Of a DNA stretch of 64,000 nt, positions 919 through 19,818 are shown in pieces. The notes under the pieces were generated by a model. The model was not told the DNA's origin. It made no database searches and was given only the letters and a program-made list of their open reading frames with translations. This stretch comes from Elusimicrobiota bacterium (GTDB lineage Bacteria > Elusimicrobiota > Elusimicrobia > UBA1565 > UBA9628). Location of the stretch: NCBI GenBank assembly GCA_035534315.1, contig DATLSD010000006.1, positions 10,839 through 74,838 of the forward strand, written 5' to 3'. The translations under genes and the position numbers were made by a program. Positions within the stretch are counted from its first letter, which is position 1; each line of letters opens with the position of its first letter.

Positions 919-3126
919 TCACTGCACCCCGGCCAGCCGCGCGTAGGCGCCGCCTTGCGCCTTTAACTCGTCGTGGGTGCCGCGCTCGACCGTCTTGCCG
1001 TCCTCGAGCACGATAATCTCATCGGCGTCGCGCACCGTGCTCAGACGGTGAGCGATAATGATGCAGGTGCATCCCCGGCGGCGCAGATTGTCGTCGATGA
1101 TTTTTTCCGTCACGGTATCCAAGGCGCTGGTGGCCTCGTCCAGGACCAGCACGCGCGGGTTCAAGACCAAAGCCCGCGCGATTTCCAGGCGCTGGCGCTG
1201 GCCGCCGCTCAAATTGGCGCCGCCCTCCTCCAAAACCGCGTCATAGCCGCCCGCGCGCGCGACGATGTCGTTATGGATGCAGGCATCCCGGGCAGCGGCG
1301 ACAATTTGATCCTCGGGCACGGTGTCATCCCAAAGGGTCAGGTTGTCGCGCACCGTGCCGGCAAAAAGCGCGATGTCCTGGTCCACGAAGGCCACCGAGT
1401 TGGCTAAAAGCGCGCGCGGCAGTTTCTCCCGCGGCACGCCGTCGAAAAGGATGTCGCCGCTCCAAGGCGGGTAAAGACCCGTGAGTATTTTTGAAATGGT
1501 GGATTTGCCGCAGCCGCTGGGCCCGACCAGCGCCACGCGGCTGCCGGGCTTAAGCGATAGGCTGAAGTCCTCAATGAGCGGCTCGGAAAGCCGTGAATAG
1601 CCGAAGGTCAGGCCGCGCAAGTCAACTTGACCCGAAAGTTTGGCCTGCGGCGGTTCGGCCTCAGAGCCTGTGGGCTCCGCCTCCGCCGAAGCCGCAGGAT
1701 CGGCCGGATAGGCCATGACGTCGTCCAGGCGGTTCATGTCGCCCTCGAATTCTTGGAACGTGCCCATGAGGTTGACGGTGCGATTGACCGGATCGATGAA
1801 GCTCGCCATGAGGCTCTGGAACGCGACCAAAAGGCCCAGCGTCATGTGCCCGCGCATGACGCTCAAGCCTCCGAAAGCCAGCACCGCGGCCGTGGCCAGG
1901 GCCTGCAAGAGCGGCGGAATCTGCAGGAAAGGCTGGGTGACCTCGTTCAACTGGAGAGTGTAGCTCACCAGCTTGGCCTGATAGCCGGCCCAGGTGGAGA
2001 AAAAATCCGACTCCCCCCCGGTCGCCTTCAGGGTCTCGATGGCCTGCAGGCCGCCCATGGAAACGCCCATGAGCTTGCCCTGCTCGCGCACCAGGCGCCG
2101 GTTTCCATCGACGCGCTTTCTTTGGATAGCGCGCGCGGCGGCGTAGTTGGCGCCCAAGGCTCCGATGGCGATCAATGTCAAAAGCGGGTTGATGGCGAAC
2201 ATCAGGGCCGCATAGAAGACGACCATGACCAGGTCAACCGCGGCCCCGGCCATGTCGGAGGCCATGATGTGGGCCAGGCGCTTGTTGATGGCCACGCGGT
2301 TGGCGATGTCGCCGCAGAAGCGCTGCGCGTAGAAGTCCACGGGCAGGCGCAGCACGTGCCAGAGAAATTTTCCGGAGCCCGAGACCGAGAGCTTGGTCTC
2401 CAGGCGGTTCAAGTAGTATTTCTGCAGCCAGGTAAGCGCCCCGCGCATGACGGCGGTGATGAGCATTCCCAGCAAGAGGGGCTTGATCCAGTCCGTCATC
2501 TGGAGCACGAGGTAATCGTCCACGAAGATGCGGATGAAGGTGGGGATGACCAGGCCCGGCACGACCAGGGCCAGGCCGGCGATGATGATGTAGGAAAGCG
2601 CCTCCTTGGAGGATTCCATGCGCTGGCGCAAGCCCGGCCACATGGATGGTTTCACGCCGCCCTTCTTGAACTCAGGGCCCGGCTTGAAGGCCAGCGTCAC
2701 GCCGGTGAAGGACTCGTCGAATTCCTCGTCTGAAACCGCGCGCGGGCCGACCGCCGGATCGGCGAGATGGACTACGCCCTTGCCGAAGCCCTCGACCACC
2801 AAGAAGTGGTTGAAGTTCCAGAACACGATGACCGGCAGGGCCATCTGCCGCAGTTCCTGCGGTTCTTTGCGGTAGCCCGTCGCTTCAAGCCCGTAGGCGC
2901 GCGCCGCGCGAAGGACGTTGCGGGCGTTGCTGCCGTCGCGGGAGACGCCGCAGGCCTTGCGCAGTTCCTCCAAGGGAACGTAGCGCCCGTAATAACCCAG
3001 CACCATGGCCAGGGACGCCGCCCCGCACTCGACCGCCTCCATCTGCAGGACGGTCGGCACGCGGGCCCGGCTCGGCCGCCCGAAAATCCGCGCGACCGGC
3101 TCAAGCAGGGATTTAGGAAGAGGCAC
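919..3126 (-). CDS. Bacteriocin/NHLP-type ABC transporter with N-terminal C39 peptidase domain, permease and ATPase
   Basis: 735 aa. C39 Cys motif (ECGAASLAMVLGYYG) sits at the N-terminus, a TM region in the middle, and Walker A GPSGCGKST plus LSGGQRQRLEIARAL at the C-terminus. Confidence 0.9.
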   Translation of the reverse strand: MPLPKSLLEPVARIFGRPSRARVPTVLQMEAVECGAASLAMVLGYYGRYVPLEELRKACGVSRDGSNARNVLRAARAYGLEATGYRKEPQELRQMALPVIVFWNFNHFLVVEGFGKGVVHLADPAVGPRAVSDEEFDESFTGVTLAFKPGPEFKKGGVKPSMWPGLRQRMESSKEALSYIIIAGLALVVPGLVIPTFIRIFVDDYLVLQMTDWIKPLLLGMLITAVMRGALTWLQKYYLNRLETKLSVSGSGKFLWHVLRLPVDFYAQRFCGDIANRVAINKRLAHIMASDMAGAAVDLVMVVFYAALMFAINPLLTLIAIGALGANYAAARAIQRKRVDGNRRLVREQGKLMGVSMGGLQAIETLKATGGESDFFSTWAGYQAKLVSYTLQLNEVTQPFLQIPPLLQALATAAVLAFGGLSVMRGHMTLGLLVAFQSLMASFIDPVNRTVNLMGTFQEFEGDMNRLDDVMAYPADPAASAEAEPTGSEAEPPQAKLSGQVDLRGLTFGYSRLSEPLIEDFSLSLKPGSRVALVGPSGCGKSTISKILTGLYPPWSGDILFDGVPREKLPRALLANSVAFVDQDIALFAGTVRDNLTLWDDTVPEDQIVAAARDACIHNDIVARAGGYDAVLEEGGANLSGGQRQRLEIARALVLNPRVLVLDEATSALDTVTEKIIDDNLRRRGCTCIIIAHRLSTVRDADEIIVLEDGKTVERGTHDELKAQGGAYARLAGVQ

Positions 3127-3133
3127 GTTGGGA

Positions 3134-4210
3134 TCAGAGCCCGAGCAGCGACTTCATCGCCGGGATGACCAAGGTGATGGGCCGGCGCTTCTTGACGATA
3201 ATGCGCACGTCGCACATCATGCCGGCCTTGATCTTCAGTTGGGGCCCCTCCGAGGAAGACCAGCGGTAGCCGCTGAAGTTGTTGGAATCCTTGTCCAGCG
3301 ATATCCTTAAAATGTAGGGAGCGCCGCCCGAAGTGAGCTCCTGGTCTAGAATGTTGTTGCGCGTAAGCTCGAAAATCATCTGTTCGCGCGCGGGAAATTC
3401 GGAGACGTAGTAGACTTGGCCCGTGAGATAGCCGTACTCTTCCTTCTTAATGATGCGCGGCGAAACCTCGGCGGCCATCCCGGGCTTGGCCTGGTTGCCC
3501 ACGCTGGGGATGAACGCGATGGCGTTGAGACTTTGCCCCTCATCGACGTAGGTCATAAGGAAGGCGCCCTTCTGGATGAGCGTTCCGGGCGAGGTCATGA
3601 CCTCGACGATGCGCCCGCTCTTGGGGGCAATGACATCGGTGGCCTCTTTAAGCTCCATGCCGTTTAGGGCCAGCTGGTTTTGCAGGGACTTGAGGCTGGT
3701 TTGCGCCCGGGCCAAGTTCTGCTTCGCGGTCTCAAGCACGTCGGGCGCGATGAGGCCGTCCTTGAGCGCCACCTGCATCGCGCGCACCTGCCGGTCCAGG
3801 CTGCGGATATGCTCCTGGGTCGCCGCGATGCTTTGGTTTATTTCGCCCGCGGAGCGCGCGCCCTTTTGCGCCATGCTGCTTTGATCCAAAGTCGCCACGA
3901 CCTCGTCCTTGGTGACCAAGTCCCCCTCGGCGACGAAAATCTGCTTGACGATGCCGGTCCCGGGCGAGTAGATATTGTCGACGCCTCGCGGCGGCATGAT
4001 GATGGCCGGACCCGAGATGGTGGTGGGGATGCTTCCCAGCACGGACCAAATGAGCGCCAAAACGATGAGGGCGCACAGCGTCCACAAGGCGTACCAGCCC
4101 TTGGGCGTGGTCACCTGCATCAGGTAGTCGAGCTGCTCGGGCGTGGAGAGCCGCTCCAAGGAAGCCTTTCGGAATATCTCTTGCTCGGCCATGGGGTTGA
4201 ATCTTAACAC
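3134..4210 (-). CDS. HlyD-family secretion adaptor of the bacteriocin export system
   Basis: 358 aa with an N-terminal TM and a long coiled-coil; 8 nt upstream of the ABC exporter. Confidence 0.8.
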   Translation of the reverse strand: MLRFNPMAEQEIFRKASLERLSTPEQLDYLMQVTTPKGWYALWTLCALIVLALIWSVLGSIPTTISGPAIIMPPRGVDNIYSPGTGIVKQIFVAEGDLVTKDEVVATLDQSSMAQKGARSAGEINQSIAATQEHIRSLDRQVRAMQVALKDGLIAPDVLETAKQNLARAQTSLKSLQNQLALNGMELKEATDVIAPKSGRIVEVMTSPGTLIQKGAFLMTYVDEGQSLNAIAFIPSVGNQAKPGMAAEVSPRIIKKEEYGYLTGQVYYVSEFPAREQMIFELTRNNILDQELTSGGAPYILRISLDKDSNNFSGYRWSSSEGPQLKIKAGMMCDVRIIVKKRRPITLVIPAMKSLLGL

Positions 4211-4226
4211 TCAATACGATGGGTAT

Positions 4227-7200
4227 TCAAGCGAACGCCTCGACTTCCGGCAGATCGTCAAGCAGGAACCGCGCGGCCGCGTAGCCGACGCCCGCCTGGC
4301 CCTGGAAAAAGCCGGGATTGGGCGGCCCCCCGTCAAAACCCAGGCGCAGCGCCCCGCGCCGGGCCCGGGAAACAACGCGCGCAATTTTATGCCGTGCTTG
4401 CCGCGTCAAAGCCTCGTCGCTCAGCGCCCGCGCGGCGCGCGCGAGGAAGAGAGCGGCTCCCGCCTCGCCGCAGCAGAGATGATCCACGGCAGGTTCGTCC
4501 GCGTAGCGCTCCACGGCCGCGGCGGCCCAGCGCGCGGCCCGCGAAAAATCGAGCCCCAAAATCCGGCCCGTTTCCAGCAAGCCGAGGCCGACGCCCGCCG
4601 CGCCGCCGCACCAGCTCAAGACAAAGCGCGGCTTGTCCCCCTGCCCGAAATCGCGCCAGTCCGGCCAGTTGCCCGCCTCGGCGTCGTAGCTCGAGGCGCA
4701 GAGCTCGGCCAGATCGCGGGAAATCTCCGCCCAAGGCCCGCCGCGCTTGCTCATCCGCGCGCAGACATAGGCCGCGCCCGCCGCGCCGTGGGCGAAACCC
4801 AACTCCGGCCGTTGCGCCCGGCCCGAGGCGATATCGTTGAACAGGCTCCGGCTCGCGGCGAGAAATTCATTTCCGATCTCTTCACGCCGCCTATCCAACT
4901 CCCCGGCCAAATCGGTCGGCGGGGCGCCGGGCAGCGCGTCGAGCGCCAAAAGCGCGCCGGGAATTCCTCCCAGCAAATCCGTCCGGCGCGCATCCTCCGA
5001 AGACAGATATTTGGGCGAAAGCGCCGCGGCCAACTGGGCCGCTTCCGCGATGAGTGATTCTTCTCCCAGGATTCGTCCGATGGCCGAAAGACCGTAGGAC
5101 AAGGACGCCGCTCCCGTGCCGATGCCCAGGCCCATGCCGCGCGTCAGCCGCTCCATGCCGTAGCGGCGCGAGTCCCGCGCGACCAGGCGCGCCGTGGCCA
5201 ACGCGACGCCGCGGGTCCGGGGATTTTTCCCCAGCTTATGGGCCGCGGCCAGAAAAAGCGCGATGCCCAGCGCGCCGTCGAAAAGCCGGCCGCCGACCGG
5301 GCCGTACTGCCAGTTGCGGGAACGCTCGTCGTAGCACATGGAGAGCCACCACGCCTCATCGCCCGCGGTCGTCAAGGCGCTTTCAAGCAAGTCGTCGGCC
5401 AGATTGAGAACAAAATCCTGCATGACGTCCGGATTAAAATCCTCCGCCGCCCCGGCTTCACCGCCTGGGACAAGCTTCGCCGGCGCCGCTTTCGGCGTGA
5501 AAAAGCTCGCGCGCAAAAACCGGCTCTGCCGGGCCAAGTCCGCCTCGTCAAGAGCGGCCAGGCGCTTGCGGACCAAATCAAGCGGCGCCTCGTTCATCAC
5601 CAGAATCCGCCGCCCGCCGCAAGACGCGTAATCATGGCCTGGCGCGGTTTTAAACACCGGGACATCTCGGCAAGACAGCGCCCGGATTTCCTCGACCGCG
5701 CTCAAGCCCAGGCTTTGCCGCTCCTTCTCGTCTTCCACGCCCGAAAGCGCGCGCCAGAGCGGCTCGAACACGAAGCCTTGGGCCGCGCCATCCTTGAGCG
5801 CGGCGGGCTCCAGCGATTTTTGCAGCATGTGCGCGTAAACGCGGGTGTTGCGCAGGATAAAGCGCGTCGGCAGGTTCTCAAGGGACTCAAGCGCGGCGGA
5901 AACGGCTCGGCGGAACTCCGGGCGAAGAGCCTGGCGGTAGGCCGCGGCGAAGCCCGATTCGATGTCGTCGAGGAAATCAGCCGCGGCGACGGGCCGGCCG
6001 TTTAAAAGCGGCTTGTTGGCGCTCGACTCGATCCTCACTCGGACCTTCGCCACGCGCATGCGGTCACGGTTAGCGAACTCCCATCGCAGAGCCTCCCCAG
6101 ATTCCTCCGCGCTTCCCCCCGCTAAGCCGCTCGACTCCAAAATCCGGCCGCCTCCCAAAAACTCGTAGCGCGGCAGAAGCGCCGTGCGCACCACCGATTC
6201 AAAGAAGAAGCGGTGCTGGGCCAAATTGGCCGCGTCGAAGGCGCCCTCTCCCAGGCGCGGCCGCGGGCAGCAGAGAGTCTCCAAATCAATCGGATAAGGG
6301 CCGGCTGCCGTCGCGACGATGTTTTCGTGGTGCAAATCCGAGGCGCCCAGCAGGTACATATGAAAAAGCAGCTCGCCCCCGGACCTGAAGTATTTCCGCA
6401 CTTGAGCCTCTTCCGTAAAATCAGCCCGGCGGGCGAACGCGCAATAACCGTAGCCGCCGCGGTCGAGCACGCGCAGACGGCCCAAGCCGGAGACAAAGCC
6501 CGCCGCGTCAAGCCTGTCCAAGTAGGCGCAAAACCACGCTTCGGCCGCCAAGGGCTTGGGCTTATAAAGGAAGCGTCCGCCGCCGTCCAATTCCAGCAGG
6601 GCCACGGTCTTGCCGCCCTCGTGCGGATCCGAAACGCCGAATTCAGCGCGCGAGATGCGCCTAAACATGTCACTTGCCGCGAAAATCTTGGCCAGTTCCG
6701 GCCAATCCTCGGCGAGACGGGAGACGAACAGGGCCGCGTTCCTGCGCCAATTTTCGAGCAGGACGGCCATGACGCGAAGGAGCGCCGGATATTCTTCGAA
6801 GAACGCGCGGAAGTCCTCCGCGAGGAATCGATGGACGAACGCGCGGAAAGCCGCGTCAGAGTCGGGATCGAAGCCGGAGAGTTCCGCGCCTTCGAGGCCG
6901 CGGAAGACGGCGAACTCGGCCGCCAGGCAATAAGCCGAAGCCCCGCAAAGGTTCCTGAGCAGATCGCGCCCGATATCTCTCCAAGCTTGCGGCGCCAGCG
7001 GTGCCTCCGGAACAGCCGCAGCGCAAGCGCCCTTGAGGCGTGCGAGCTCGTGCTCGGTTAGCGCCGACCAGACAGGGCCAAAAGGAATGTCCGCGCCGGG
7101 CAGGGCGGCCGCGTCTTGTTCCGCGTCCCTTTGCGGCTTTTCCCGACCGCACGAGAGAAAGTCGATAATGTCGACCGCGGCGGGAACCCAGCTCTCATCC

Positions 7201-7391
7201 GCGGGAGAAAAATCGCGAAACGTCTTGCGAAGCTCCAAAAGGCCGGGCGCCAGCGGATCGATGGCCGCGCGCCAAGCCTCTTCGTCAGCGCCGCTCGAGC
7301 CGCCGACGGAGAGCCGCTCGGACAAGGAGCGCGCCTTGGGCACGAGCGCCTGGACGAAGACCTCCGGCGGGGCCGCGGACGCCGTGCTCAC
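4227..7391 (-). CDS. Class II lanthipeptide synthetase (LanM; dehydratase plus LanC-like cyclase)
   Basis: 1054 aa. N-domain carries YKPKP and DLHHEN motifs. C-domain carries GFAHGAAG, SWCGGAAG (WCxG) and HLCCGEAG, a CCG motif rather than CHG, as in ProcM. Confidence 0.85.
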   Translation of the reverse strand: MSTASAAPPEVFVQALVPKARSLSERLSVGGSSGADEEAWRAAIDPLAPGLLELRKTFRDFSPADESWVPAAVDIIDFLSCGREKPQRDAEQDAAALPGADIPFGPVWSALTEHELARLKGACAAAVPEAPLAPQAWRDIGRDLLRNLCGASAYCLAAEFAVFRGLEGAELSGFDPDSDAAFRAFVHRFLAEDFRAFFEEYPALLRVMAVLLENWRRNAALFVSRLAEDWPELAKIFAASDMFRRISRAEFGVSDPHEGGKTVALLELDGGGRFLYKPKPLAAEAWFCAYLDRLDAAGFVSGLGRLRVLDRGGYGYCAFARRADFTEEAQVRKYFRSGGELLFHMYLLGASDLHHENIVATAAGPYPIDLETLCCPRPRLGEGAFDAANLAQHRFFFESVVRTALLPRYEFLGGGRILESSGLAGGSAEESGEALRWEFANRDRMRVAKVRVRIESSANKPLLNGRPVAAADFLDDIESGFAAAYRQALRPEFRRAVSAALESLENLPTRFILRNTRVYAHMLQKSLEPAALKDGAAQGFVFEPLWRALSGVEDEKERQSLGLSAVEEIRALSCRDVPVFKTAPGHDYASCGGRRILVMNEAPLDLVRKRLAALDEADLARQSRFLRASFFTPKAAPAKLVPGGEAGAAEDFNPDVMQDFVLNLADDLLESALTTAGDEAWWLSMCYDERSRNWQYGPVGGRLFDGALGIALFLAAAHKLGKNPRTRGVALATARLVARDSRRYGMERLTRGMGLGIGTGAASLSYGLSAIGRILGEESLIAEAAQLAAALSPKYLSSEDARRTDLLGGIPGALLALDALPGAPPTDLAGELDRRREEIGNEFLAASRSLFNDIASGRAQRPELGFAHGAAGAAYVCARMSKRGGPWAEISRDLAELCASSYDAEAGNWPDWRDFGQGDKPRFVLSWCGGAAGVGLGLLETGRILGLDFSRAARWAAAAVERYADEPAVDHLCCGEAGAALFLARAARALSDEALTRQARHKIARVVSRARRGALRLGFDGGPPNPGFFQGQAGVGYAAARFLLDDLPEVEAFA

Positions 7392-8119
7392 GGCCCTTCC
7401 CGCCGCAGCCGCCAGGCCTCGGGATCGCGCGCGATAGCGTCCAAAAAGGCGAGATGGTTCGTGTGGTTGACGAAATTAAAGCTCAGGGTGACGGAGGGTT
7501 CTAGGCTCTGCGCCGAGTGCACGCGGCCGGCGGGGATCAAGAGCACGTCGCCGGGCTCGAGTTCCACGTCTTCGCTTGCGGCCAGGCCCTCCGCTCCGGC
7601 CAGACCGCGCAGGCTCACGCGCTTGCGGCCGACGAGCTGCGCCAGCCAGGCGTGCGTGGAGAACAAATCCGCGTGCGGCAGGGTTTCGGTGCCCGCCGGG
7701 CCGATGAAAAGCCAGCCGAATTTGCGCAGGTACCAGCTCTTCTGCGCGGGCGCGCGGAAGTCGAGCAGCGTGCGGCAGAACTCGGGAAACGCGAAGTCTT
7801 TAAGAAGCTCGGGATGATCCGCGAAGGGAGAATACTGCAGGGTGTACCACCGAGGCTCCTCAGCCGGGCCGGCTCCGCTTAAAATCCAATCGATGAATTC
7901 GGCCAAGCGCATCTTCTTGCCGCGCTTGGTCGCGCCGATTTTATCGCCCACGACCACCTCGTCTTGTCCCAACCTTTCGCGCAGAAACTTCCAGTTCCAG
8001 CGCTCGAACGCCCTCCAGCGCTTGGCGTAGCCCTTGAAGAGCGCCGGAATGCCCGGCGCGGAGAGCAGAGAGCGCTCGGCTTCCTCGGCGGAAATTTCCT
8101 CGCTGAATATCCGGATCAT
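7388..8119 (-). CDS. JmjC/cupin-like Fe(II)/2-oxoglutarate-type oxygenase, a candidate peptide hydroxylase
   Basis: 243 aa. HxD (LPHAD) followed by a distal His (RVHSAQ) in a cupin-sized protein; 4-nt overlap with the lanM start. Confidence 0.55.
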   Translation of the reverse strand: MIRIFSEEISAEEAERSLLSAPGIPALFKGYAKRWRAFERWNWKFLRERLGQDEVVVGDKIGATKRGKKMRLAEFIDWILSGAGPAEEPRWYTLQYSPFADHPELLKDFAFPEFCRTLLDFRAPAQKSWYLRKFGWLFIGPAGTETLPHADLFSTHAWLAQLVGRKRVSLRGLAGAEGLAASEDVELEPGDVLLIPAGRVHSAQSLEPSVTLSFNFVNHTNHLAFLDAIARDPEAWRLRREGP

Positions 8120-9018
8120 GACGGCGCGCCGGAAGCGAAAGCCGAGCGGCGGCGGATGTCCGCGCTAAAGCGCTCCTTCAAGATGCCTGAAAGCCTTTCC
8201 AGCAGCCGATCGCAGAGGTCGCGCGGGGTATAACCGGAAATCCGCGAGAGGCTCACGCCGATGAACCGGCAGTCCATCTCCGTGTCCTTAAGCCACGCGC
8301 CGAAGCGCTCCATCCGGGCGAAGGCTTCCTCATCGGTGGCGGTGCGGCCCTCGCCGCGCCCGTCCGAGCGGCCGAAGACCAGCAAATGCTTGTTCTCCGG
8401 CGTGACGGAAGGGCTTACGGGAGCGCCGGGCGAAATGCGCAGAAGATGATACGGATTGTTCTTAAAGCGCTCGTACTCTTCCGCAGTGACCTCAAGAGCG
8501 ACGGGATCTCGCTCCGGAGTCAGATTGCAGGAGAAATAGTCCAAGCAGATATCGAGCGCTACGGGGTATTGCGGCCGGATGTCTGAAAGGTTCTTCACCC
8601 GCGCGAAGCGCGCCTGGGCGGCGTCGGGCTTGCCCTGGAGATCGGGCGGCAGCGGCCCCCTGGCCCAGACCATGGCCCGGCGCTGGGCGTCGGTGGTGAA
8701 AATGCAGACCGAGCCGTCGTAAGGCAGGGTGGCCTCGTGCTCGCGGTGCCACCACACCTCGCTGAAAAACCCGTGAAGCACGGCGGGCCAGATAAAATTC
8801 GCGATGTTGAGTTCCTTCAGGATGAAGGCGCGGGTTTCTTCGAGACCGGCGCCCGGTTCCAGCATCGGGCCCTGCAGCGTCGGGAGATCCATGTCCGAGT
8901 GCTCGTCGATATGGACCAGCGAACTGCCGCGGGCGGGAAGAACGCCCTTGGCCGCGGCTTCCTTCCAAAAATAAAACGCCTCGTGGTGTTCCTCAAAAAC
9001 GACGCAGGGGACGGGCAT
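8116..9018 (-). CDS. Hypothetical tailoring protein, possibly UPF0489-like (arginase/deacetylase-related fold)
   Basis: 300 aa. The N-terminal PVPCVVFEEHHEAFYFW motif is reminiscent of the UPF0489 family, from memory only. Translationally coupled on both sides. Confidence 0.3.
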   Translation of the reverse strand: MPVPCVVFEEHHEAFYFWKEAAAKGVLPARGSSLVHIDEHSDMDLPTLQGPMLEPGAGLEETRAFILKELNIANFIWPAVLHGFFSEVWWHREHEATLPYDGSVCIFTTDAQRRAMVWARGPLPPDLQGKPDAAQARFARVKNLSDIRPQYPVALDICLDYFSCNLTPERDPVALEVTAEEYERFKNNPYHLLRISPGAPVSPSVTPENKHLLVFGRSDGRGEGRTATDEEAFARMERFGAWLKDTEMDCRFIGVSLSRISGYTPRDLCDRLLERLSGILKERFSADIRRRSAFASGAPS

Positions 9019-9953
9019 CAGCTCCGCGCGGAGGCCAGCGGAACTTCAAGCCCGCGCAAGGTCCAGGTCTTGTCCAGACAGGGCACCAGGTGCTTGTTTA
9101 ATGAGCGCAGCCACTCCGGATACTCCAAGGGGACGTCGAACTCCGCGCAGCTGGGCGCGCCTTCCTTCAGAAACATCTCGTAGTGCGCGTTCATGGCCGC
9201 GCGCAACAGCAGGACCGCGGCGGCGCGGTGGCGCGCGGCGAAGGCCGGATCGACCCAGAACTTGGTGTAGTAAAGAGTATCGGGCTTCTCAGCGAAGCGA
9301 TGGGTCGCGAACCAGCCCTTAGCCTCGCCCCCCGAGAACAGCATCTGGCTCGTCGACCAGTCGATTTCATTCTCACGAAAGCGCACGCTTAGATGCGCGG
9401 GCGCCCCGGCGCGCGAACCCCGCTCGATGGGGTCGAGCCCCTCGGCGCGGGCCTTGGTCCAGGAAATCACGCGCCAATCGGCGGCCGCGGACTCGCCGGC
9501 GCCCTTGGCCCAGCGCGGAATATTCGCGATGCGGCTCTGGCCGAAGAAAATGCGCGTAAAGGGCGTCCCGCAGCCGGCGCGAACGATGGTTTTTTCGACG
9601 GCCTCAAGCCCCGAAATGCGGCTGCCATAATTGACGGAGAGGCGCTCGAGTCCTGGCCGGCGCGAAAGCTCTTCTATTAGGCGGCGCAAAAGCGCGGCGC
9701 CAAGCCCTTGCCGCCGCCGCCCGGGCAGGACATAGACCGAGAGCAGCTCGGCCTTGCGCTCCGCGGGTTCGAGCCTCGCCAGCGCGAGCCCCTCCGGCTC
9801 CCCGCCCAATCCGAGCGCGGCCGCGGCCAGCCAAGAAAATTCCTTCCTTGCGACGCCCTGGGCGAAAGAAGGGTAGGTGAAACCGGCCCAAGGCGAAAAA
9901 TCCGTCCCGGGCCCCAAGGTGGAAAGCTGTCCGGAATTTAAAATGGCGGTCAT
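9018..9953 (-). CDS. GNAT-family N-acetyltransferase
   Basis: 311 aa with GNAT motif A (RRRQGLGAALLRRLIEE); 1-nt overlap with the next gene. Confidence 0.6.
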   Translation of the reverse strand: MTAILNSGQLSTLGPGTDFSPWAGFTYPSFAQGVARKEFSWLAAAALGLGGEPEGLALARLEPAERKAELLSVYVLPGRRRQGLGAALLRRLIEELSRRPGLERLSVNYGSRISGLEAVEKTIVRAGCGTPFTRIFFGQSRIANIPRWAKGAGESAAADWRVISWTKARAEGLDPIERGSRAGAPAHLSVRFRENEIDWSTSQMLFSGGEAKGWFATHRFAEKPDTLYYTKFWVDPAFAARHRAAAVLLLRAAMNAHYEMFLKEGAPSCAEFDVPLEYPEWLRSLNKHLVPCLDKTWTLRGLEVPLASARS

Positions 9954-10048
9954 AACGTGGCGTTGGATTTAAGAACCCTAAGCTTCGGGGCACGGGAGAA
10001 TGGCCCCGCGCCCCGAAGCGATGCCGTCGTGGATTTGGTCGGCCGAAA

Positions 10049-10366
10049 CTACATGCTCATCATGACGCAGGCCGAGGAGCCGCCGCAGGTCGCGCCGCAG
10101 CGTCCGCCGCCGGCGACTTTCTCGAGCTCGCTGTCGGAAAGCTCGCCGCCCGTCTTGACCAGATCGGGCACCACGACCACCAAGTCGGCGCCGTTGCGCG
10201 CCACGGCCTTGATGTTGAAGCCTTGAGGAAGGTCCTTGCCGGAGACCTCCTTGACCGCCTTGACCGGATCCTTGAGCGCCAGCTCGCGGAACTTCGCGTC
10301 CGTCGAAGCCTTGCGCGAAAATGCCTCCAAGGCCTTTTTCTGCTCGTCTTGTGTCCAGGGTTTCAT
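10049..10366 (-). CDS. NHLP-leader lanthipeptide precursor A (core GRCGATCGGSSACVMMSM)
   Basis: 105 aa. The leader matches the nitrile-hydratase-leader pattern (FRELALKDP...ELSDSELEKVAGG). The core has 3 Cys and several Ser/Thr, and an AGGAGA RBS is present. Confidence 0.85.
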   Translation of the reverse strand: MKPWTQDEQKKALEAFSRKASTDAKFRELALKDPVKAVKEVSGKDLPQGFNIKAVARNGADLVVVVPDLVKTGGELSDSELEKVAGGGRCGATCGGSSACVMMSM

Positions 10367-10431
10367 CGTTTTCTCCTTGAATAATCTAAACGGCTCTTCG
10401 TCTTCGTTTAATTGATGCGAGAGCGCGCCCT

Positions 10432-10794
10432 TTAGACGCAGGCGCCGCCCACGCCCGGCACGTACGTTGGTCCCGGAGGCACCGTGGACGAAACTAGGCA
10501 GACCTGGCTGATGCCGCAGCTTCCCGCGCAGCGGCCGCCCGCGACCTTCTCAAGCTCGCTGTCGGAAAGCTCGCCGCCCGTCTTGACCAGATCGGGAACC
10601 ACGAGCACCATGTCCACGCCGTCCCGCGCCACGGCAGCAAGCTTGAAGTCCGGCGGCAGCTCCTTGCCGGAGACTTCCTTGACCGCCTTGGCCGGGTCCT
10701 TAAGCGCCAGTTCCCGGAACTTCGCGTCCGTCGAGGCCTTGCGCGCGAACGCCTCCAAGGCCTTTTTCTTCTCGTCCTGAGTCCAAGGTTTCAT
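10432..10794 (-). CDS. NHLP-leader lanthipeptide precursor B (core RCAGSCGISQVCLVSSTVPPGPTYVPGVGGACV)
   Basis: An internal start (MKPWTQDEKKK) lies inside the 249-aa track ORF, giving 120 aa. The leader is about 90% identical to precursor A, and a GGAG RBS sits upstream of the ATG at 10794. Confidence 0.85.
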   Translation of the reverse strand: MKPWTQDEKKKALEAFARKASTDAKFRELALKDPAKAVKEVSGKELPPDFKLAAVARDGVDMVLVVPDLVKTGGELSDSELEKVAGGRCAGSCGISQVCLVSSTVPPGPTYVPGVGGACV

Positions 10795-10804
10795 TGATTT
10801 CTCC

Positions 10805-11509
10805 TTAATCCAAGCGCAGCTTAAAATTGTCCGGCAGGCTCCGGCCCAGCACCTCGGCGGCCGCCGCCCGCGGATTCGACATGAATTTCTCGCGAAAACC
10901 GGGTTGGGAGGCGGCGCGCTTGGCGACGGCGCGGCGGAGGCACGCCAGTTCAAACTCGCTTGGAAGCGGCGCGGCGGGGAATGCCTCCCCCTCGCCAAAT
11001 CGCGCGACGCGTTCGGCCAGAATTTCGCGCCAGAACTCGCGCGCGGACTGGAGATTATCGGCGAAACTTTGGGAAAAAGCCGGGGCCGGAATTTTTTCGG
11101 CGCCTTCGCCCAACAGCGAGTTGAAATGGGCAAGCCCTTCTCGAAGCCTTTTCGATTCCGCCGCGTCCGCCCGCCCGTCAAGCCTTCTCGCGTCGAAAGC
11201 GGCGCACCGGGCTTGGGCTCCGGGCGTGAAAATGGGAGTAAAGCGTCCGCGCGCGGCGGAAATTTCCATCAAGTCGAACAGGAATTCTCCGCTTGAAACG
11301 CGCAAAAGTCGGTGGCGCCGGATAAAGACGCCGCTGTCGGCGTCGCGGCGCGCTAAAAATAGGTCGAGCCGGCCCTCAAGAACCAGCCACGCCCGGCCTT
11401 CGGATCCGCACTGCACGTAGGGGACGCCGGCGGGAAGTTCCTGTCCGATGTCCTCGATTCTCGACGGCGTGGCCTCGGACGCTCCAATCATCGGAGGGGA
11501 TGTTATCAT
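10805..11509 (-). CDS. Hypothetical protein: cNMP-binding-like N-domain fused to a C-terminal NHLP-leader-like segment with no core
   Basis: 234 aa. The N-terminus (VQCGSEGRAWLVLEGRLDLFLA) resembles the N-terminus of the partial gene at 1..911. The C-terminus (FREKFMSNPRAAAAEVLGRSLPDNFKL) aligns with the precursor leaders. Confidence 0.5.
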   Translation of the reverse strand: MITSPPMIGASEATPSRIEDIGQELPAGVPYVQCGSEGRAWLVLEGRLDLFLARRDADSGVFIRRHRLLRVSSGEFLFDLMEISAARGRFTPIFTPGAQARCAAFDARRLDGRADAAESKRLREGLAHFNSLLGEGAEKIPAPAFSQSFADNLQSAREFWREILAERVARFGEGEAFPAAPLPSEFELACLRRAVAKRAASQPGFREKFMSNPRAAAAEVLGRSLPDNFKLRLD

Positions 11510-11525
11510 ATTCCTAAAATAAGAT

Positions 11526-12554
11526 TTAGCGGCCGAAAAAGGCCCAGGCCGCGGCCGCGTTGCACAGCAAATAGGCCGCCGGATAAAGCGCGCGGGAGAA
11601 GGACCGGATGCGCGCCGCGGCTTTCGCGGAGCGACCGTCCGCGACGCGGTGAACGATGACGATTTCCACGATAGTAACGGCGGAAAAGACGAAGCCGATG
11701 AGGAAAAAAGCGTCGATATAGGTCAAGTACGGCAGGTGCGGCAGGCTGCCTGAAATCACGAAGAGAAAGGCGATCATGGTCAGGGCGGCGCTCAGGGCCA
11801 CGGAGAACTGGGCGGCCGTGTCGGTTTCCTTAATCCAAAGAGCGCAATAAGAAACGATGACCATGATAAAGAGCGGCAGAAAGACTTTCCAGATGTAGTA
11901 GCCGTAGCGCCGCTTGATGACCATGTTGAAGTCGATTTCCGGGATGCTGCCGCCCTTGCCGCCCAAGACTGACTCGGCCGGCACGGCCCGCATTCCCAAC
12001 ATTTTCCATTGCGCCAAGAGGGCCCAGGGCTGGCTGTTGATGCCGGTCTGTCCCGCATCAGGGACAAGCGCAACCGCATCCCGCTCATCCAAGAACGGTT
12101 GAAGCACCACGGGCAGGACCTGCTCGTCAAATGGAAAACGGTGGAAGGTCATCTGCATGGTCAGGTCGTCCTCGAAATCTTCCCAGAAAACAACCGTGCC
12201 GTCGGGATGCCGGCGGATGTTGGTTCCCAGCTTGAAGAGCCCGTTGACCGCGTTAGCCATGACGATGTTGGGCGTCCAAATTTTTTCCGGGTCGCACAGC
12301 CGGTCCGTGTCCTTGGCGCCGCGCGGCGCATACTTAAGACGGGAATCTTTCCATTGTTCGTAGAGATAGCCGCGGACGCGGAAGGTTTCCCCGACCTCGT
12401 CCACGCCGACCAAGTCGGTCACGTAGACGCCCACCTTGACCGGCACCCGCCCGTTTCTGCCCGGCGGCGGCGCGATAGAGGCGGCCGAGGAAGGCCGCAG
12501 GCTCAGGCCCAAGGATAAAATCAGGAACAACGCCGGGATTCTCGCGCGCCTCAT
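11526..12554 (-). CDS. Prokaryotic pentameric ligand-gated ion channel (Cys-loop receptor family homolog)
   Basis: A signal peptide from internal Met MRRARIPALF precedes the ligand-binding-domain pattern VKVGVYVTDLVGVDEVGETFRVRGYLYEQWKDSRLKY. There are four C-terminal TM helices. The track ORF (to 12806) carries an implausible N-extension. Confidence 0.7.
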   Translation of the reverse strand: MRRARIPALFLILSLGLSLRPSSAASIAPPPGRNGRVPVKVGVYVTDLVGVDEVGETFRVRGYLYEQWKDSRLKYAPRGAKDTDRLCDPEKIWTPNIVMANAVNGLFKLGTNIRRHPDGTVVFWEDFEDDLTMQMTFHRFPFDEQVLPVVLQPFLDERDAVALVPDAGQTGINSQPWALLAQWKMLGMRAVPAESVLGGKGGSIPEIDFNMVIKRRYGYYIWKVFLPLFIMVIVSYCALWIKETDTAAQFSVALSAALTMIAFLFVISGSLPHLPYLTYIDAFFLIGFVFSAVTIVEIVIVHRVADGRSAKAAARIRSFSRALYPAAYLLCNAAAAWAFFGR

Positions 12555-12776
12555 CAAGCGGAGATTATATCCTAAAAATGCTATCGTGATCGTGATGTTC
12601 GTCCTTTTGTTGCACCGGAGCCGCCCATGAAAAAGCAGTGCGTCGCGATGACGTCCGTCACCACCTACTCCGCCGCCCACCGGTGTCTCAAGGGCGCCGA
12701 CGCCCCCAAAAGCGGCCGTCGCCGGCTCTGCGCCCATCACCGCGCCCAAGCCGTCCGCGCCGGAAGCAGGTAAGTT

Positions 12777-13688
12777 TTGGCCAAACGGGAACTGCCCCGC
12801 TGGCAAGCCTTTCCGCTTGTCGCCCTGCTAAGCGCCCTTGGGCTCTTCGCTTCGGCCCTGCCGCGGCGCCTTGAAGTTTCCCTGGCCCGCACCCTGGGCC
12901 GGCTGGTGTTCCAGGCCCGGCTTTTCAAGCGCCGGGTGGTGGAATCCAACGTCAAGCGCTGCCTGCCGAAACTCAGCTTCGCCGAACGCCGCAGGCTCAT
13001 TCGGAACAACTACGAGCACTACGGGCTTCTCCTCTTCGAGTACATGCATTTTTTCTCCCCCTTCAAGGGCCACTGGCGTCGCTACGTTCCCACCGTCGCG
13101 CGCATGGAAGGCTTCGAACATTGGGAAAAGGCCCACGCGCGCGGCCGCGGCGTGATTTTCTTCTGCTCGCACCTGGGCTCCTGGGAAGCGGGAGCGGCCT
13201 CCATCGCCTTAAGCGGCGTCGAGGCCACCATCGTGACCACGGTCTTGACCCCGCGCTGGCTGCACGACAAGATCACGGCCTGCCGCGATTCGGTGGGCAT
13301 GAAGGCGGCTTATCACCCGGGCTCCATGCCCGCGGTGCTCAAAACCCTGCGCCGCGGCGGCTCGGTCGCCTTCATGAACGATCAGTACGCCGCGCCGCCC
13401 ATGGGCCTGCCGGCGGTTTTCTTCGGAACCAGCGTGGATACCTTAGCGGTCGTCGGGCCCCTGGCGCGACGGACCGGCGCGGCCGTGCTGCCGCTGCACA
13501 CCTTCCGCGCCGCCGACGGCATGACCACGGCCGTCATCGAGCCTGAATTAGAATTGGGCGACGCCTTGGACGACGCCTCGGCCGCGACCCAGCGCGTGGC
13601 CAGCCGTGTGGAATCCTGGGTGCGCGCCAACCCGGAACATTGGCTCTGGATGCACCGCCGGTTCAAGAACGTCGCGCCCGCGGCCTAA
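12777..13688 (+). CDS. Lipid A biosynthesis (LpxL/HtrB-like) lysophospholipid acyltransferase
   Basis: 303 aa with an N-terminal TM and the general LpxL-family layout. Confidence 0.65.
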   Translation: MAKRELPRWQAFPLVALLSALGLFASALPRRLEVSLARTLGRLVFQARLFKRRVVESNVKRCLPKLSFAERRRLIRNNYEHYGLLLFEYMHFFSPFKGHWRRYVPTVARMEGFEHWEKAHARGRGVIFFCSHLGSWEAGAASIALSGVEATIVTTVLTPRWLHDKITACRDSVGMKAAYHPGSMPAVLKTLRRGGSVAFMNDQYAAPPMGLPAVFFGTSVDTLAVVGPLARRTGAAVLPLHTFRAADGMTTAVIEPELELGDALDDASAATQRVASRVESWVRANPEHWLWMHRRFKNVAPAA

Positions 13689-13706
13689 AAGTCCTCAGCC
13701 TGCCCT

Positions 13707-14391
<685 letters not shown>

Positions 14392-14402
<11 letters not shown>

Positions 14403-17064
14403 CCGGCTCTCCCAGCGGCAGCGAAAATTTAAAAGAAGCGCCGCCTCCTTCGCGGCTCTCGGCCCAGATGCGCCCGCCGTGCGCGTTCAAGACCGCCCGG
14501 CAGATCGCCAGGCCCAAGCCGGCGCCCTTCGAGCCCTTGGCGTGATAGAATTTTTCAAAAACTTTTTCGAGGTCCTCGGGCGGGACGCCCGGCCCGCGGT
14601 CGGCCACCTCGACGATCAAGCGATCTTTTTCGGCCCGCGCGGTGACGGCGATGGGTGTTCCCTCGGGGGTGTGCCGCGCCGCGTTCTCCAGGAGGTTCAT
14701 GAAAACCTGCTCGATGAGCACGCCGTCCATCGGAACCAGCGGCAGGTCGGGAGGCACGCTGGTCGTTATCTCCCGGCGCGCGAGCATCGCCTCAAGGCGC
14801 CCCAGGGCCGAGCCGGCGATCTCCTCGATGGAGCCGGGCTCCTTGCGCAGCGCCACCGCGCCCGTTTCAAGGCGCGTGGTCTCGATGAGATTGGCGACCA
14901 AACGCGCCAGCCACTGGCCCTCCTCGATGACATTCTCCACGAGCTCGCGAGCCTTGTGCGTCAGCGGAGCGCCCGCATCCTGAAGCAGGCTCGTGGCCGA
15001 GCCGATGATGGCGGCTAAAGGCGTGCGCAAATCATGCGAAACTGACGAGAGCAGGGAACTGCGCAATCGCTCGGTCTCGGCGTCGATTTGCGACTGGCGC
15101 GCGCTTTCCTGGAGACGATCGACCTCGAGTGCCAGGCCGATTTGATGAGCGAAGGATTCCAGGAGCAGCATCTGATCGGGAATCAAAAGACGCTCCCGCG
15201 AGTGCGGCTGGACGCGGAGCACGCCCACGGGCCCCTCCGCGCCGGTCAAGGGCGCGTAGAGCGCGTTGACCACGGGCAGGGTCTGCGTGCCCAGTCCGGC
15301 CGACTGCCCCAGATCAAACACCCACTGCGCGACGCTGCGCTCCTTTTCATCGAGTTCCCGCTTGGCGCCCGAGGCGCTGCGGACTTCCAGAGCCCCCCGT
15401 TCCCCTTGCATGAGCGCGATGATGTCGCTGTCGAAAACCTCCGCGACATGGCGCGCCGCCACATCCAAAATAGCCTGCACGCCGCGCGTGCCGGCGAGCT
15501 CGCGGCTCAGGGAGTGCATCGCGGCCGTACGCATCTCTCCCAGGCGCGCCGACTCGGCCTGGGCTTGGATGCGCACGGTCAGCCCCGAGATGAAGAGCGC
15601 CACCGCCGCCATGACGACGAAGGTCACCAGGTAATCCCCGCTGCTCACGCTGAATGTAAAGCGCGGAGGCACGAAGAAGAAGTCGAAGCAGAGCACGGCC
15701 AGGATGGAGTAGAGCGCCGCGGGGCGGCGATGCCCGCGGGAAGCCACCAGCACGGCGCCGGCCAGGTAGAGCATGATGAGATCGGTCAGCGCCAAGTACG
15801 GGGAGACGAGAAAATCCAAGAGAGTGACCGCGGCCGCGGCGCCCGCCGCGACTACGTATTCCCACGGCGGCGTTTCCGGCTTCTTGGCCAATGCGGACGG
15901 AGCCGGTTCGGCGGCCGGGCCCTCTCCGCGGATGACGTAGACGTCGATGTCTCCGCTTTTCTGCACCAATTGATCGACGATGCTGCCGCGCAAGATCTCC
16001 TTCCAGCGCTGCCGCGCGCTCTTTCCTACCACGAGCTTGGTGACGTTGCGCTGCCGGGCCAAATCCAGCATGCCCTCGACCACGTCGCGTGTCGTCAGCG
16101 TGAGGGTCTGGGCGCCTAATTGTCCGGCCAAGCGCAGATTGTCGATGGCGCTGCTGCGCGCCGTCTCGGAGAGCCGCTGGGCCTGGGAATCAACGAAGAC
16201 GGCCAGCCACTCGGCGTGAAGGCCCGCGGCCATGCGCCGGGTTGCGCGGACGAGCTTCGCGGAACTGGGCCCGGGACCGACCGCGACCAGAAGCCGTTCG
16301 CGCGTGGGCCAGATGGCCTCGGGGGCTTGGCGGCGGCGGTAGGATTCCACCACAGCGGCCACGCCCTCGGCCGTGGCGCGCAGGGAGAGCTCGCGCAGCG
16401 CGGACAAATTGGACATCTTGAAGAAGCTCTGCACCGCGCGTTCGGCCATGTCGGGGACGTAGACCTTGCCCTCCTTCAAGCGATCCAAAAGCTCCTCGGG
16501 CGGCAAGTCGACCAGCTCGACGTCGGCGCGCTCCAAGACGGAGTCCGGCACGGTCTCGCGCACGATGACGCCCGTAATGCGCGCGACGATGTCGTTCAAG
16601 GTCTCCAAATGCTGGATGTTGAGAGTCGTGTAGACGTCGATGCCGCGATCCAGAAGCTCCAACACGTCTTGCCAGCGTTTGGAATGGCGGCTTCCCGGAG
16701 CGTTGGTATGCGCGAGTTCATCGACGAGAAGAAGCCCGGGCCTGCGCGCCAGGGCCGCGTCGATGTCGAAATCGTAGAGCTTGATGCCCCGGTGTTCGCC
16801 GACGCGGCGGGGTAGGACTTCCAGACCGTCGAGCAGTTCCCGGGTCTCGCGGCGGCCATGGGTCTCCGCCAGGCCCACGGCCACGTCCTCGCCATCGTTT
16901 TTCTTGATGCGCGCCGCCTGGAGCATGGCGTAGGTCTTGCCCACGCCGGGCGCGGCGCCGAGGAAAATCTTAAGCCTGCCGCCGACGCCGCGGGTCTCGT
17001 CCTGGCGCGCCTCGGGCAGGAAGGCTTCGGGTTCCGGGCGTTTTCGCTCTCTGGGCATTTTCAT
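14392..17064 (-). CDS. kdpD: Sensor histidine kinase KdpD
   Basis: 890 aa. An N-terminal KdpD/P-loop domain (GAAPGVGKTYAML) is followed by USP and TM regions, a GAF domain, the HisKA motif (SHDLRTPL) and an HATPase domain. Confidence 0.9.
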
Positions 17065-17114
17065 CTACTTAAATAACATGTTTGCGCCACCGACGCAATG
17101 AGACGGGGGCGAGA

Positions 17115-17732
17115 TCATCTTCCTCGGGCCCGGCGGGAAGATCGGATCATCCGCCGCAAGCTTTCGTTGAGCATCAGGACGTTGACCCGCGGTTCTCCGA
17201 AAATTCCCAGCGCGCGGCCTTGAACGCGCTTGAGAACGAGGGCGCGCACGGCCGCTTCGGAGATTCCATAGCGCCGGACGGCGGCCGCCACGCGCGGCAG
17301 CTGCCAGAGGGCCGCGGCCGGGCTGATGTCGGGATCAAGCCCGCTGCCCGAGGCGGTCACGAGCTCCGGCGGAATGGGCGCCGCGTTACCGGGCTCGGAG
17401 GCGCGCAGGGCGCCGACACGGGCTTGGACGCTTTGAAGCAGCGCGGGGTTGGTCGGACCGAGATTCGAGCCCGAGGAAGACGCCGCGTTGTAGGGAAACG
17501 GCGTCGTCGCCGAGGGGCGGCTCCAGAAGTACATGGGACTTGAGAACGACTGGCCGATAAGCTCCGAGCCCGCGACCTTGCCGTCTTGGACGATGAGGCT
17601 GCCGTTGGCCTGCCAAGGAAACAGGAACTGGGCCAGGCCGGTCACCAGAGCCGGATAAGCGAGTCCGGTCAGGATGGAGAAGGCCGCGAACATCAGCGCC
17701 GCCGGCCGGAGTTGGCTGAGAAGTGTTTTCAT
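17115..17732 (-). CDS. kdpC: Potassium-transporting ATPase subunit C
   Basis: 205 aa with a single N-terminal TM; sits between kdpB and kdpD. Confidence 0.9.
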   Translation of the reverse strand: MKTLLSQLRPAALMFAAFSILTGLAYPALVTGLAQFLFPWQANGSLIVQDGKVAGSELIGQSFSSPMYFWSRPSATTPFPYNAASSSGSNLGPTNPALLQSVQARVGALRASEPGNAAPIPPELVTASGSGLDPDISPAAALWQLPRVAAAVRRYGISEAAVRALVLKRVQGRALGIFGEPRVNVLMLNESLRRMIRSSRRARGR

Positions 17733-17744
17733 GTCGATTCCTCG

Positions 17745-19817
<2,073 letters not shown>

Positions 19818-19818
19818 T

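Follow-up and report, generated by a model that had tools for sequence, protein, structure and literature searches.

A candidate pha-type selidamide gene cluster with a short and a long precursor in an uncultured Elusimicrobiota bacterium

A 64-kb stretch of contig DATLSD010000006.1, assigned to an Elusimicrobiota bacterium, carries two adjacent genes, A and B, that encode putative lanthipeptide precursors, together with a single gene for a class II lanthipeptide synthetase (LanM); the whole of this stretch is referred to here as the window. The arrangement raises two questions: what kind of peptide do A and B encode, and do their products represent one agent or two? A preliminary description of this DNA saw near-identical leaders joined to unrelated cores and suggested either a substrate-tolerant system of the prochlorosin kind or a two-peptide product. 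In this study, we conclude that A and B are probably the substrate genes of a pha-type selidamide cluster, that is, a cluster for side-chain fatty-acylated lanthipeptides; the chemistry, rings, and activity of the products are those that we infer from sequence and from analogy with characterized pathways.

Precursors, maturases, and the predicted pathway

The pha cluster of Pseudophaeobacter arcticus consists of an NHLP precursor gene, the genes for PhaN (GNAT), PhaR (PF12640), PhaI (PF08007), and PhaM (PF05147 and PF13575), and three transporter genes (Hubrich et al. 2022, PMC8784127). The window has each of the five Pfam families named for pha (PF00583, PF12640, PF08007, PF13575, and PF05147) in contiguous and co-oriented genes, together with three transport genes (Table 1). 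The order on the minus strand is ORF234, B (long), A (short), a stem-loop, GNAT, peptide arginase, JmjC hydroxylase, LanM, HlyD, ABC1 (with its C39 domain), and ABC2; from GNAT to LanM, neighboring reading frames abut or overlap by 1 to 4 nucleotides (nt). Because the GNAT, arginase, and hydroxylase genes stand between the precursors and LanM, we assign the cluster to the pha type; the preliminary description, in which one LanM serves both precursors, had overlooked these three maturase genes. The catalytic motifs of LanM, the hydroxylase, the C39 domain, and GNAT are intact.

Retranslation of A and B gave exactly the coordinates and peptide sequences that had been reported. Both leaders end in ELSDSELEKVAGG, both proteins have a VAGG junction, and in tblastn comparisons within the window A and B matched each other with E values of 3e-46 and 5e-39, far beyond chance. 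The leaders share 74 of 87 amino acids (85%, somewhat less than the 90% first estimated) and 225 of 261 nt (86%); their codon differences comprise 18 synonymous and 13 nonsynonymous changes. The cores had been described as completely different. However, their first 12 to 13 residues align in frame (RCGATCGGSSACV versus RCAGSCGISQVCL), and both cores start with a shared head, RCxx[S/T]CGxSxxC[V/L], in which 8 of 13 residues are identical. At the DNA level, too, the first 12 core codons (RCGATCGGSSAC versus RCAGSCGISQVC) are homologous, with 24 of 36 nt identical. Beyond the head, B continues into a 20-residue tail, VSSTVPPGPTYVPGVGGACV, which carries a fourth Cys. Each core contains one Arg and no Lys; the Arg is at core position 2 in A and position 1 in B, and in both it is directly followed by Cys, with Thr or Ser three residues past that Cys.

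The NHLP leader model TIGR03793 matches both leaders end to end, with E values of 8.5e-12 for A and 8e-11 for B. Since the cognate exporters pass the NHLM equivalog cutoffs (TIGR03796 and TIGR03794 in the window; TIGR03797 for the orthologue in locus L014), we classify the two leaders, from their sequences, as divergent NHLP-type leaders. Both ATG start codons are preceded, at a distance of 6 nt, by an AAGGAG ribosome-binding site, at 10801-10806 for B, where it overlaps the stop codon of ORF234, and at 10373-10378 for A. Comparison of each gene with two orthologues gave ratios of nonsynonymous to synonymous substitution rates (dN/dS) of 0.09 to 0.16 for A and 0.07 to 0.15 for B, at synonymous rates (dS) of 0.3 to 0.9; both precursor genes are under strong purifying selection. 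A tblastn search of the window for a third precursor found none, the sole other weak match (2e-5) being the C-terminal tail of ORF234.

Selidamides are ribosomally made peptides that a GNAT, termed the N enzyme, fatty-acylates on a Lys or ornithine side chain; their precursors combine an NHLP- or Nif11-type leader and a Gly-Gly junction with an acceptor Arg or Lys at one end of the core. The GNAT of the window is a candidate selidamide N enzyme, which would acylate an ornithine side chain. It has the CoA-binding motif RRQGLGAAL and aligns over 269 amino acids, with 26% identity and an E value of 1e-22, with the GNAT encoded next to a KspA-like precursor in a metagenome-assembled genome (MAG) of Kamptonema. 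An exhaustive search yielded 524 relatives, most of them two-domain proteins of about 300 amino acids, and the alignments of the window GNAT with the KspN-like GNAT of Kamptonema and with GNATs that adjoin arginases in at least 10 other loci run over its full length. The arginase of the window has a match in PDB 8brp, a peptide arginase of solved structure (E value of 1e-33), and its HxDxHxD motif and D160 do not vary across the family alignment; its sequence places it in the broader PF12640 peptide-arginase family, outside the narrow "exception" model NF052474. The JmjC protein, a candidate ornithine hydroxylase, is akin to the JMJD5 and JMJD6 arginyl and lysyl hydroxylases (E value of 1e-9) and has the HxD...H triad, formed by H149-x-D151 and a distal His in an IPAGRVHS motif.

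LanM has the catalytic loop DLHHEN352 and the motifs GFAHG865, WCGG927, and HLCCGEA (residues 971 to 977). Its zinc site is Cys-Cys-Cys, the CCG signature of ProcM-like enzymes, which is common to the LanM proteins of the related loci; in this signature the third zinc ligand is Cys, not the His of the CHG type, a feature that has been tied to substrate tolerance (PMC8524650). A tblastn search for a second LanM across the window found none, in agreement with the proposal that one LanM serves both precursors. The proposed Gly-Gly cleavage site for the C39 domain is likewise supported, by the VAGG junction and by the catalytic residues Gln28, Cys34, and His107 of ABC1. ABC2 runs beyond the start of the window; its full-length orthologue in L014 scores 883 bits against TIGR03797, above the cutoff of 709 bits.

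In phaeornamide, core Arg2 is converted to ornithine, which is gamma-hydroxylated and acylated with 3-hydroxydecanoate, a methyllanthionine links Cys4 and Thr7, and the leader is cut after Gly-Gly (PMC8784127). By analogy, we envision that the NHLP-type leaders present both peptides of the window to one enzyme set. The arginase would turn the sole family-invariant Arg (core position 1 in B and 2 in A) into ornithine, the JmjC enzyme would hydroxylate that ornithine, and the GNAT would then move a fatty acyl group onto its delta-amine. The single CCG-type LanM would dehydrate Ser and Thr residues and add Cys thiols to them, and the C39 domain of ABC1 would cut after VAGG during export via HlyD, ABC1, and ABC2. 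The most likely ring topology, again by analogy with the Cys4-to-Thr7 ring of phaeornamide, is three small rings, each with its Cys N-terminal to the dehydro residue, and B may have an extra large C-terminal ring onto its penultimate Cys32. The predicted products would be two lipopeptides that share a lipidated, ring-bearing head but differ in their tails.

The short-plus-long pair and its interpretation

Homologues of the precursors are few and were found only in metagenomes and MAGs. The closest genome, a MAG labeled Elusimicrobia (DAIDHS010000014.1), shares the gene order of the window, and its arginase is 84% identical. A head of the form R-C-x-x-[S/T]-C-x-x-S-(x-x)-C is kept in all relatives of this RC-type family: across 18 aligned sequences the Arg, three Cys residues, and one Ser are invariant, and the Ser or Thr before the second Cys is kept. 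In the majority form, the head consists of three consecutive C-x-x-S/T units; the third unit of both window cores has two residues more before the third Cys than this consensus, and in A the Ser after the third Cys is at +4 (CVMMS), whereas the consensus has it at +3. The cores fall into two types. Counted from the invariant Arg, short cores have 15 to 17 residues, with the head followed by about 4 to 5 hydrophobic residues, and long cores have 29 to 33 residues, with the head followed by SSTV, PGVG, and then G-x-C-x. The long cores of two soil metagenome contigs (L095 and L099) end in ...TIGIPTVGSIVSI and are without the C-terminal Cys of all other long cores; therefore, the predicted C-terminal macrocycle is not a constant feature of the family.

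Each of the 14 distinct complete loci with this head in the fetched DNA, the window included, has at least one short and one long core; the only loci with a single type (L007 and L008) are cut by a contig end and were left out of this count. A 15th pair is likely from precursors P0007 and P0008, for both of which the longest contig is the same 1086-nt Logan contig. The source MAGs of the paired loci are labeled Elusimicrobia, Caulobacteraceae (L016), and Vicinamibacteria (L017 and L021), the other loci being on unassigned metagenome contigs. The short-plus-long pairing is thus conserved across several bacterial phyla with type-specific sequence, and therefore both products have been maintained by selection. 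In every relative, the RC-type precursors are accompanied by the GNAT-arginase-hydroxylase block, including relatives whose LanM gene lies elsewhere, and the enzymes that are universally linked to these precursors, GNAT and arginase, match the invariant Arg.

Three of the related loci have a more elaborate organization. In two Vicinamibacteria MAGs and a metagenome contig (L017, L021, and L098), the genes for short and long RC-type precursors are accompanied by those for GNAT, arginase, and cupin, and after the cupin gene the operon continues with genes for a B12-radical-SAM C-methyltransferase (TIGR03975, 542 bits), a DUF7005 protein, an outer-membrane factor, HlyD, and an ABC exporter. In all three loci, the opposite strand carries an additional radical SAM paralogue upstream; in L017 and L021, which extend far enough in that direction, a second GNAT gene and a LanM gene come after it. 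Judged by their gene content, these loci appear to be a more heavily tailored variant of the RC-type family. A radical SAM enzyme as a substitute cross-linker for LanM was considered for these Vicinamibacteria and rejected, since the enzyme belongs to TIGR03975, a family of B12-dependent C-methyltransferases and not of thioether synthases, and LanM is encoded about 8 kb upstream.

The near-identity of the two leaders is a feature of the window lineage and not of the family. Within-locus identity between short and long leaders is 83 to 87% in the window lineage, 56 to 69% in L016, and 41 to 57% in most other lineages, contrary to the idea that near-identical leaders are a family requirement. 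Leaders cluster by core type in the Acidobacteria-like loci and by lineage in the window lineage and the L016/L102 group; the loci set against the window in this comparison included L012, L017, and L096. In addition, dS between the paralogues of the window (0.47) is lower than that between orthologues in the window and L009 (0.57 to 0.74), although the duplication is older. These data, which come from short sequences, suggest that the leaders were homogenized in the window lineage, probably by gene conversion. Elsewhere, a single set of enzymes handles leaders that are quite dissimilar; hence, leader near-identity is not a mechanistic requirement.

Several observations weigh against the assignment of A and B to a selidamide cluster, or limit how far it extends. 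The acyl chain length, hydroxylation site, and ring connectivity were all derived by analogy, and the GNAT, a candidate member of the selidamide GNAT clade, is only approximately 26% identical to a KspN-like enzyme. With TIGR03793, the leaders of A and B score 44.8 and 41.7 bits, respectively, below the NCBI curated cutoff of 50.9, and the arginase scores 178 bits with NF052474 (the FlmR/OhkR family), for which the curated cutoff is 350. Furthermore, in the Vicinamibacteria relatives LanM lies outside the precursor operon, approximately 8 kb upstream on the other strand and beside the second GNAT gene, and two short contigs (L012 and L096) have no LanM before the contig end; the shared head may therefore not acquire lanthionines in every member of the family.

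Whether the products of A and B act together as a two-peptide agent is, in our view, an evenly balanced question. The conserved co-occurrence of the two core types and their shared head point toward cooperation, and the conserved pairing makes the two-peptide product of the preliminary description more plausible. Single-LanM two-peptide lantibiotics are known, namely, roseocin, cytolysin, carnolysin, and bicereucin (PMC10027976, PMC4550811). The window does not follow the classical two-component pattern of lacticin 3147 and haloduracin, with two dedicated LanM enzymes and a mersacidin-like alpha peptide: it has one LanM in 64 kb, its cores have no similarity to the alpha or beta peptides, and one head is shared by both. 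Less in favor of cooperation, the short-to-long gene dosage varies among the loci (1:1, 2:1, 3:1, and 1:2), unlike that of a strict 1:1 two-component agent, and selidamide clusters with several precursors but no known synergy exist, for example, the five-core cluster of the Kamptonema MAG. We tentatively propose that the RCxx[S/T]CxxS(xx)C family could constitute a "two-component selidamide," in which short and long peptides bearing the same acyl-(hydroxy)ornithine multi-ring head would be made by a single enzyme set and would act together, in uncultured Gram-negative lineages represented by MAGs labeled Elusimicrobia, Caulobacteraceae, and Vicinamibacteria; in the window its leaders would have been homogenized to 85%, probably by gene conversion.

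The alternative that deserves most attention is that the two modified peptides are independent products of shared enzymes, with separate or redundant roles and no cooperation. We regard this as a real possibility that falls short of being probable. The varying copy ratios are in keeping with it, as are the five different KspA-like cores that occur with one LanM, GNAT, and arginase in the Kamptonema MAG and the link between CCG-type LanM enzymes and substrate tolerance. However, redundancy would not predict that both core types, with their type-specific tails, are found in 14 of 14 complete loci from very distant lineages, and the shared head suggests a common target or a mutual interaction.

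It is improbable that the locus encodes an ordinary two-component class II lantibiotic, with LanM as its sole maturase and with GNAT, arginase, and cupin genes that are unrelated neighbors, or with a GNAT that acetylates the peptides or confers immunity. GNATs commonly transfer acetyl groups, and the arginase falls below the curated NF052474 cutoff, so that part of the evidence could be read in this way. Nevertheless, the three genes are embedded in closely packed frames between the precursors and LanM, the same block is found with RC-type precursors in every relative, including those with a nonadjacent LanM, the sole Arg of the cores is invariant, and the GNAT has the two-domain architecture of about 300 amino acids that is seen in RiPP (ribosomally synthesized and posttranslationally modified peptide)-associated N enzymes.

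A diversifying system of the prochlorosin kind, in which a promiscuous LanM would act on hypervariable, unrelated cores and the pair would have no significance, is about equally improbable. The NHLP-type leaders, the Gly-Gly site, and the single LanM with a ProcM-type CCG motif all fit such a system. The cores, however, are not unrelated, there are only two precursors in 64 kb, and the repertoire consists of the same two core types, which recur as orthologues across distant lineages with dN/dS values of 0.07 to 0.16. Finally, the idea that one of the two genes is a decaying or frameshifted copy or is not expressed, for which we found no supporting point, can be dismissed: both reading frames are intact and preceded by ribosome-binding sites, their dN/dS values against two orthologues each and the conservation of both types across phyla rule out a pseudogene, and a comparison of the B core in three frames with A revealed homology in frame only, over the first 12 codons.

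Other features of the operon and its flank

Table 1. Features of the candidate selidamide operon (positions in the window)
Feature	Position	Strand	Basis or description
ABC2, second exporter subunit (NHLM ABC2), N-terminal part	1-911, beyond window start	minus	TIGR03797 partial, E 9e-13
ABC1, ABC exporter with N-terminal C39 peptidase	919-3126	minus	TIGR03796, 1098 bits (cutoff 853)
HlyD-type secretion adaptor, NHLP bacteriocin system	3134-4210	minus	TIGR03794, 267 bits (cutoff 156)
LanM, class II lanthipeptide synthetase	4227-7391	minus	TIGR03897, 568 bits (cutoff 304)
JmjC/cupin Fe(II)/2-oxoglutarate hydroxylase, PhaI-like	7388-8119	minus	PF13621, PF08007
Peptide arginase (Arg to ornithine within peptide)	8116-9018	minus	PF12640; NF052474 E 2e-52
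GNAT-family N-acyltransferase, about 300 amino acids, two domains	9018-9953	minus	PF00583, 45 bits
Stem-loop between A and GNAT, 16 bp, G+C-rich, without U-tract	9982-10019	minus	RNA fold
Precursor A, short type	10049-10366	minus	105 amino acids: 87-residue leader and 18-residue core GRCGATCGGSSACVMMSM
Precursor B, long type	10432-10794	minus	120 amino acids: 87-residue NHLP-type leader and 33-residue core RCAGSCGISQVCLVSSTVPPGPTYVPGVGGACV
ORF234, conserved gene just upstream of B	10805-11509	minus	No Pfam match

The gap between precursor and enzyme genes is the usual site of a hairpin that sets the precursor-to-enzyme ratio. In the window, the region from 9940 to 10060 folds with an energy of -46.3 kcal/mol (z = -2.9), and L006 and L009 retain a hairpin at the corresponding position, the main stem showing two compensatory pair changes. 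A scan of positions 9800 to 13000 for intrinsic terminators and promoters gave matches that were no commoner than in shuffled sequences, and the stem-loop was not among the intrinsic terminators called. It is probably an attenuator or an mRNA-stabilizing hairpin that would lift precursor levels over those of the enzymes.

ORF234 is confined to the window lineage. Its dN/dS against the orthologues in L009 and L006 is 0.25 to 0.3, and we therefore consider it a real gene, which is probably part of the operon. The C-terminal 40 or so residues of its product (192 to 233) resemble the first half of the NHLP leader (E values of 2e-4 to 2e-5), and residues 29 to 100, approximately, are weakly similar to the N-terminal nontransporter domain of NHLM ABC2, with E values of 1e-6 for one relative and 0.14 for the ABC2 of the window itself. 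The protein may be a leader mimic, a regulator, or a chaperone. An AlphaFold2 model of ORF234 built without an alignment had a mean predicted local distance difference test score (pLDDT) of 45.6, too low for a fold search.

Directly upstream of ORF234 is a homologue of pentameric ligand-gated ion channels (PF02931 and PF02932; 11526-12806, minus strand). The linkage of the channel gene, ORF234, B, and A is kept in the Elusimicrobia-labeled MAG L006, though the genes further upstream differ, and the channel gene is absent from the more distant RC-type loci. If it belongs to the cluster, it might serve in immunity or sensing. Positions 12777 to 21585 contain a gene for a lipid A-type acyltransferase (PF03279, plus strand) and a complete kdp operon (KdpE, KdpD, KdpC, KdpB, and KdpA), and further along the same flank are genes for DabA with a proton-antiporter-like partner, a multicopper oxidase, a ThiS-ThiF-rhodanese fusion, and malic enzyme. 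The region from 12777 to 21585 looks like ordinary chromosomal context without further RiPP genes.

Relation to known lanthipeptide systems

Both pha-type selidamides and single-LanM multi-precursor clusters are already known. To our knowledge, only three selidamide pathways have been characterized, and none has a reported bioactivity or paired-precursor logic. A full-text literature search found no paper on the RC-type core family or on paired-precursor selidamides; that search did not extend to the supplementary tables of Hubrich et al., where more putative clusters are listed, some of them acidobacterial. The conservation of the pairing across phyla turns the existence of ribosomal lipopeptides that act as two-component agents into a testable question. 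From the family consensus, three small Cys-x-x-Ser/Thr rings in succession are also predicted beside the lipidation site, which would be unusual, and a compact pha-like enzyme set that naturally takes two cores, and in relatives leaders that are only 41 to 50% identical, would be useful for lipopeptide engineering. For annotation, precursors of this kind should be interpreted in the light of the neighboring arginase, GNAT, and hydroxylase genes and not as those of a plain lantibiotic.

The window was compared with pha by means of the published description, and the homology of its GNAT to PhaN is indirect, through the KspN-like GNAT. The P. arcticus pha locus was absent from the 80 loci recovered, and a tblastn search of plasmids with an alphaproteobacterial arginase gave no match. 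Like the window, pha has N, R, I, and M maturase genes after an NHLP Gly-Gly precursor, and three transport genes. The acceptor Arg is at the start of the core in both systems (position 2 in PhaA and in A), and a Cys stands three residues before a Thr or Ser, as Cys4-Thr7 in phaeornamide and Cys3-x-x-Thr6 in A. Unlike the window, with its conserved short-plus-long pair, pha has one precursor; phaeornamide has one ring, whereas the window cores have three or four Cys residues and the family consensus has three consecutive CxxS/T units. The host of pha is an alphaproteobacterium, while that of the window is uncultured and its closest MAG is labeled Elusimicrobia. A Nisaea MAG (L049, approximately 7894-20748) contains another pha-like locus, with two NHLP precursors, GNAT, arginase, cupin, LanM, and exporter genes; its cores, FLDRGRREHCNQGSSVEV and FLDRGKREECNQGSRAEF, are unrelated, and its gene content makes it a further two-precursor selidamide candidate.

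The kamptornamide (ksp) system of Kamptonema also combines an NHLP precursor with a peptide arginase, a GNAT, and a CCG-type LanM, and its acylation site is Orn1, as predicted for B. It differs in the absence of a hydroxylase and of an adjacent exporter, in the conversion of several Arg residues to ornithine, and in its ring, which is formed in the forward direction from Thr11 to Cys19, unlike the rings predicted for the window. The published ksp cluster has a single colocalized precursor. The Kamptonema sp. MAG contig DATGYA010000223.1 (L024, approximately 11095-19402) has a ksp-like locus with five different NHLP precursors, whose cores start with RRR, and one LanM, arginase, and GNAT gene; one of its cores, RRRGGSSRVITNTPGVPGCN, matches the published features of KspA, with four Arg residues, Thr11, Cys19, and Asn20.

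The prochlorosin systems (ProcM and SyncM) are similar to the window in having a CCG-type LanM, NHLP/Nif11-type leaders with Gly-Gly, and one enzyme for several cores. Unlike the numerous and hypervariable prochlorosin cores, those of the window belong to two types that are conserved as orthologues and are accompanied by extra tailoring enzymes. Parallels to the pair itself are roseocin, cytolysin, carnolysin, and bicereucin, in which, as in the window, two precursors with a conserved leader and different cores are served by one LanM (PMC10027976, PMC4550811). Leaders of the roseocin family are likewise NHLP type, and cytolysin also consists of a long and a short subunit. However, the LanM enzymes of these four systems are of the CHG type and their producers are Gram positive (Firmicutes, or Actinobacteria in the case of roseocin), in contrast to the CCG-type enzyme of the window, and they lack arginase, hydroxylase, and GNAT lipidation. 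Synergy has been demonstrated for these lantibiotics, while the pair in the window is known from its genes alone.

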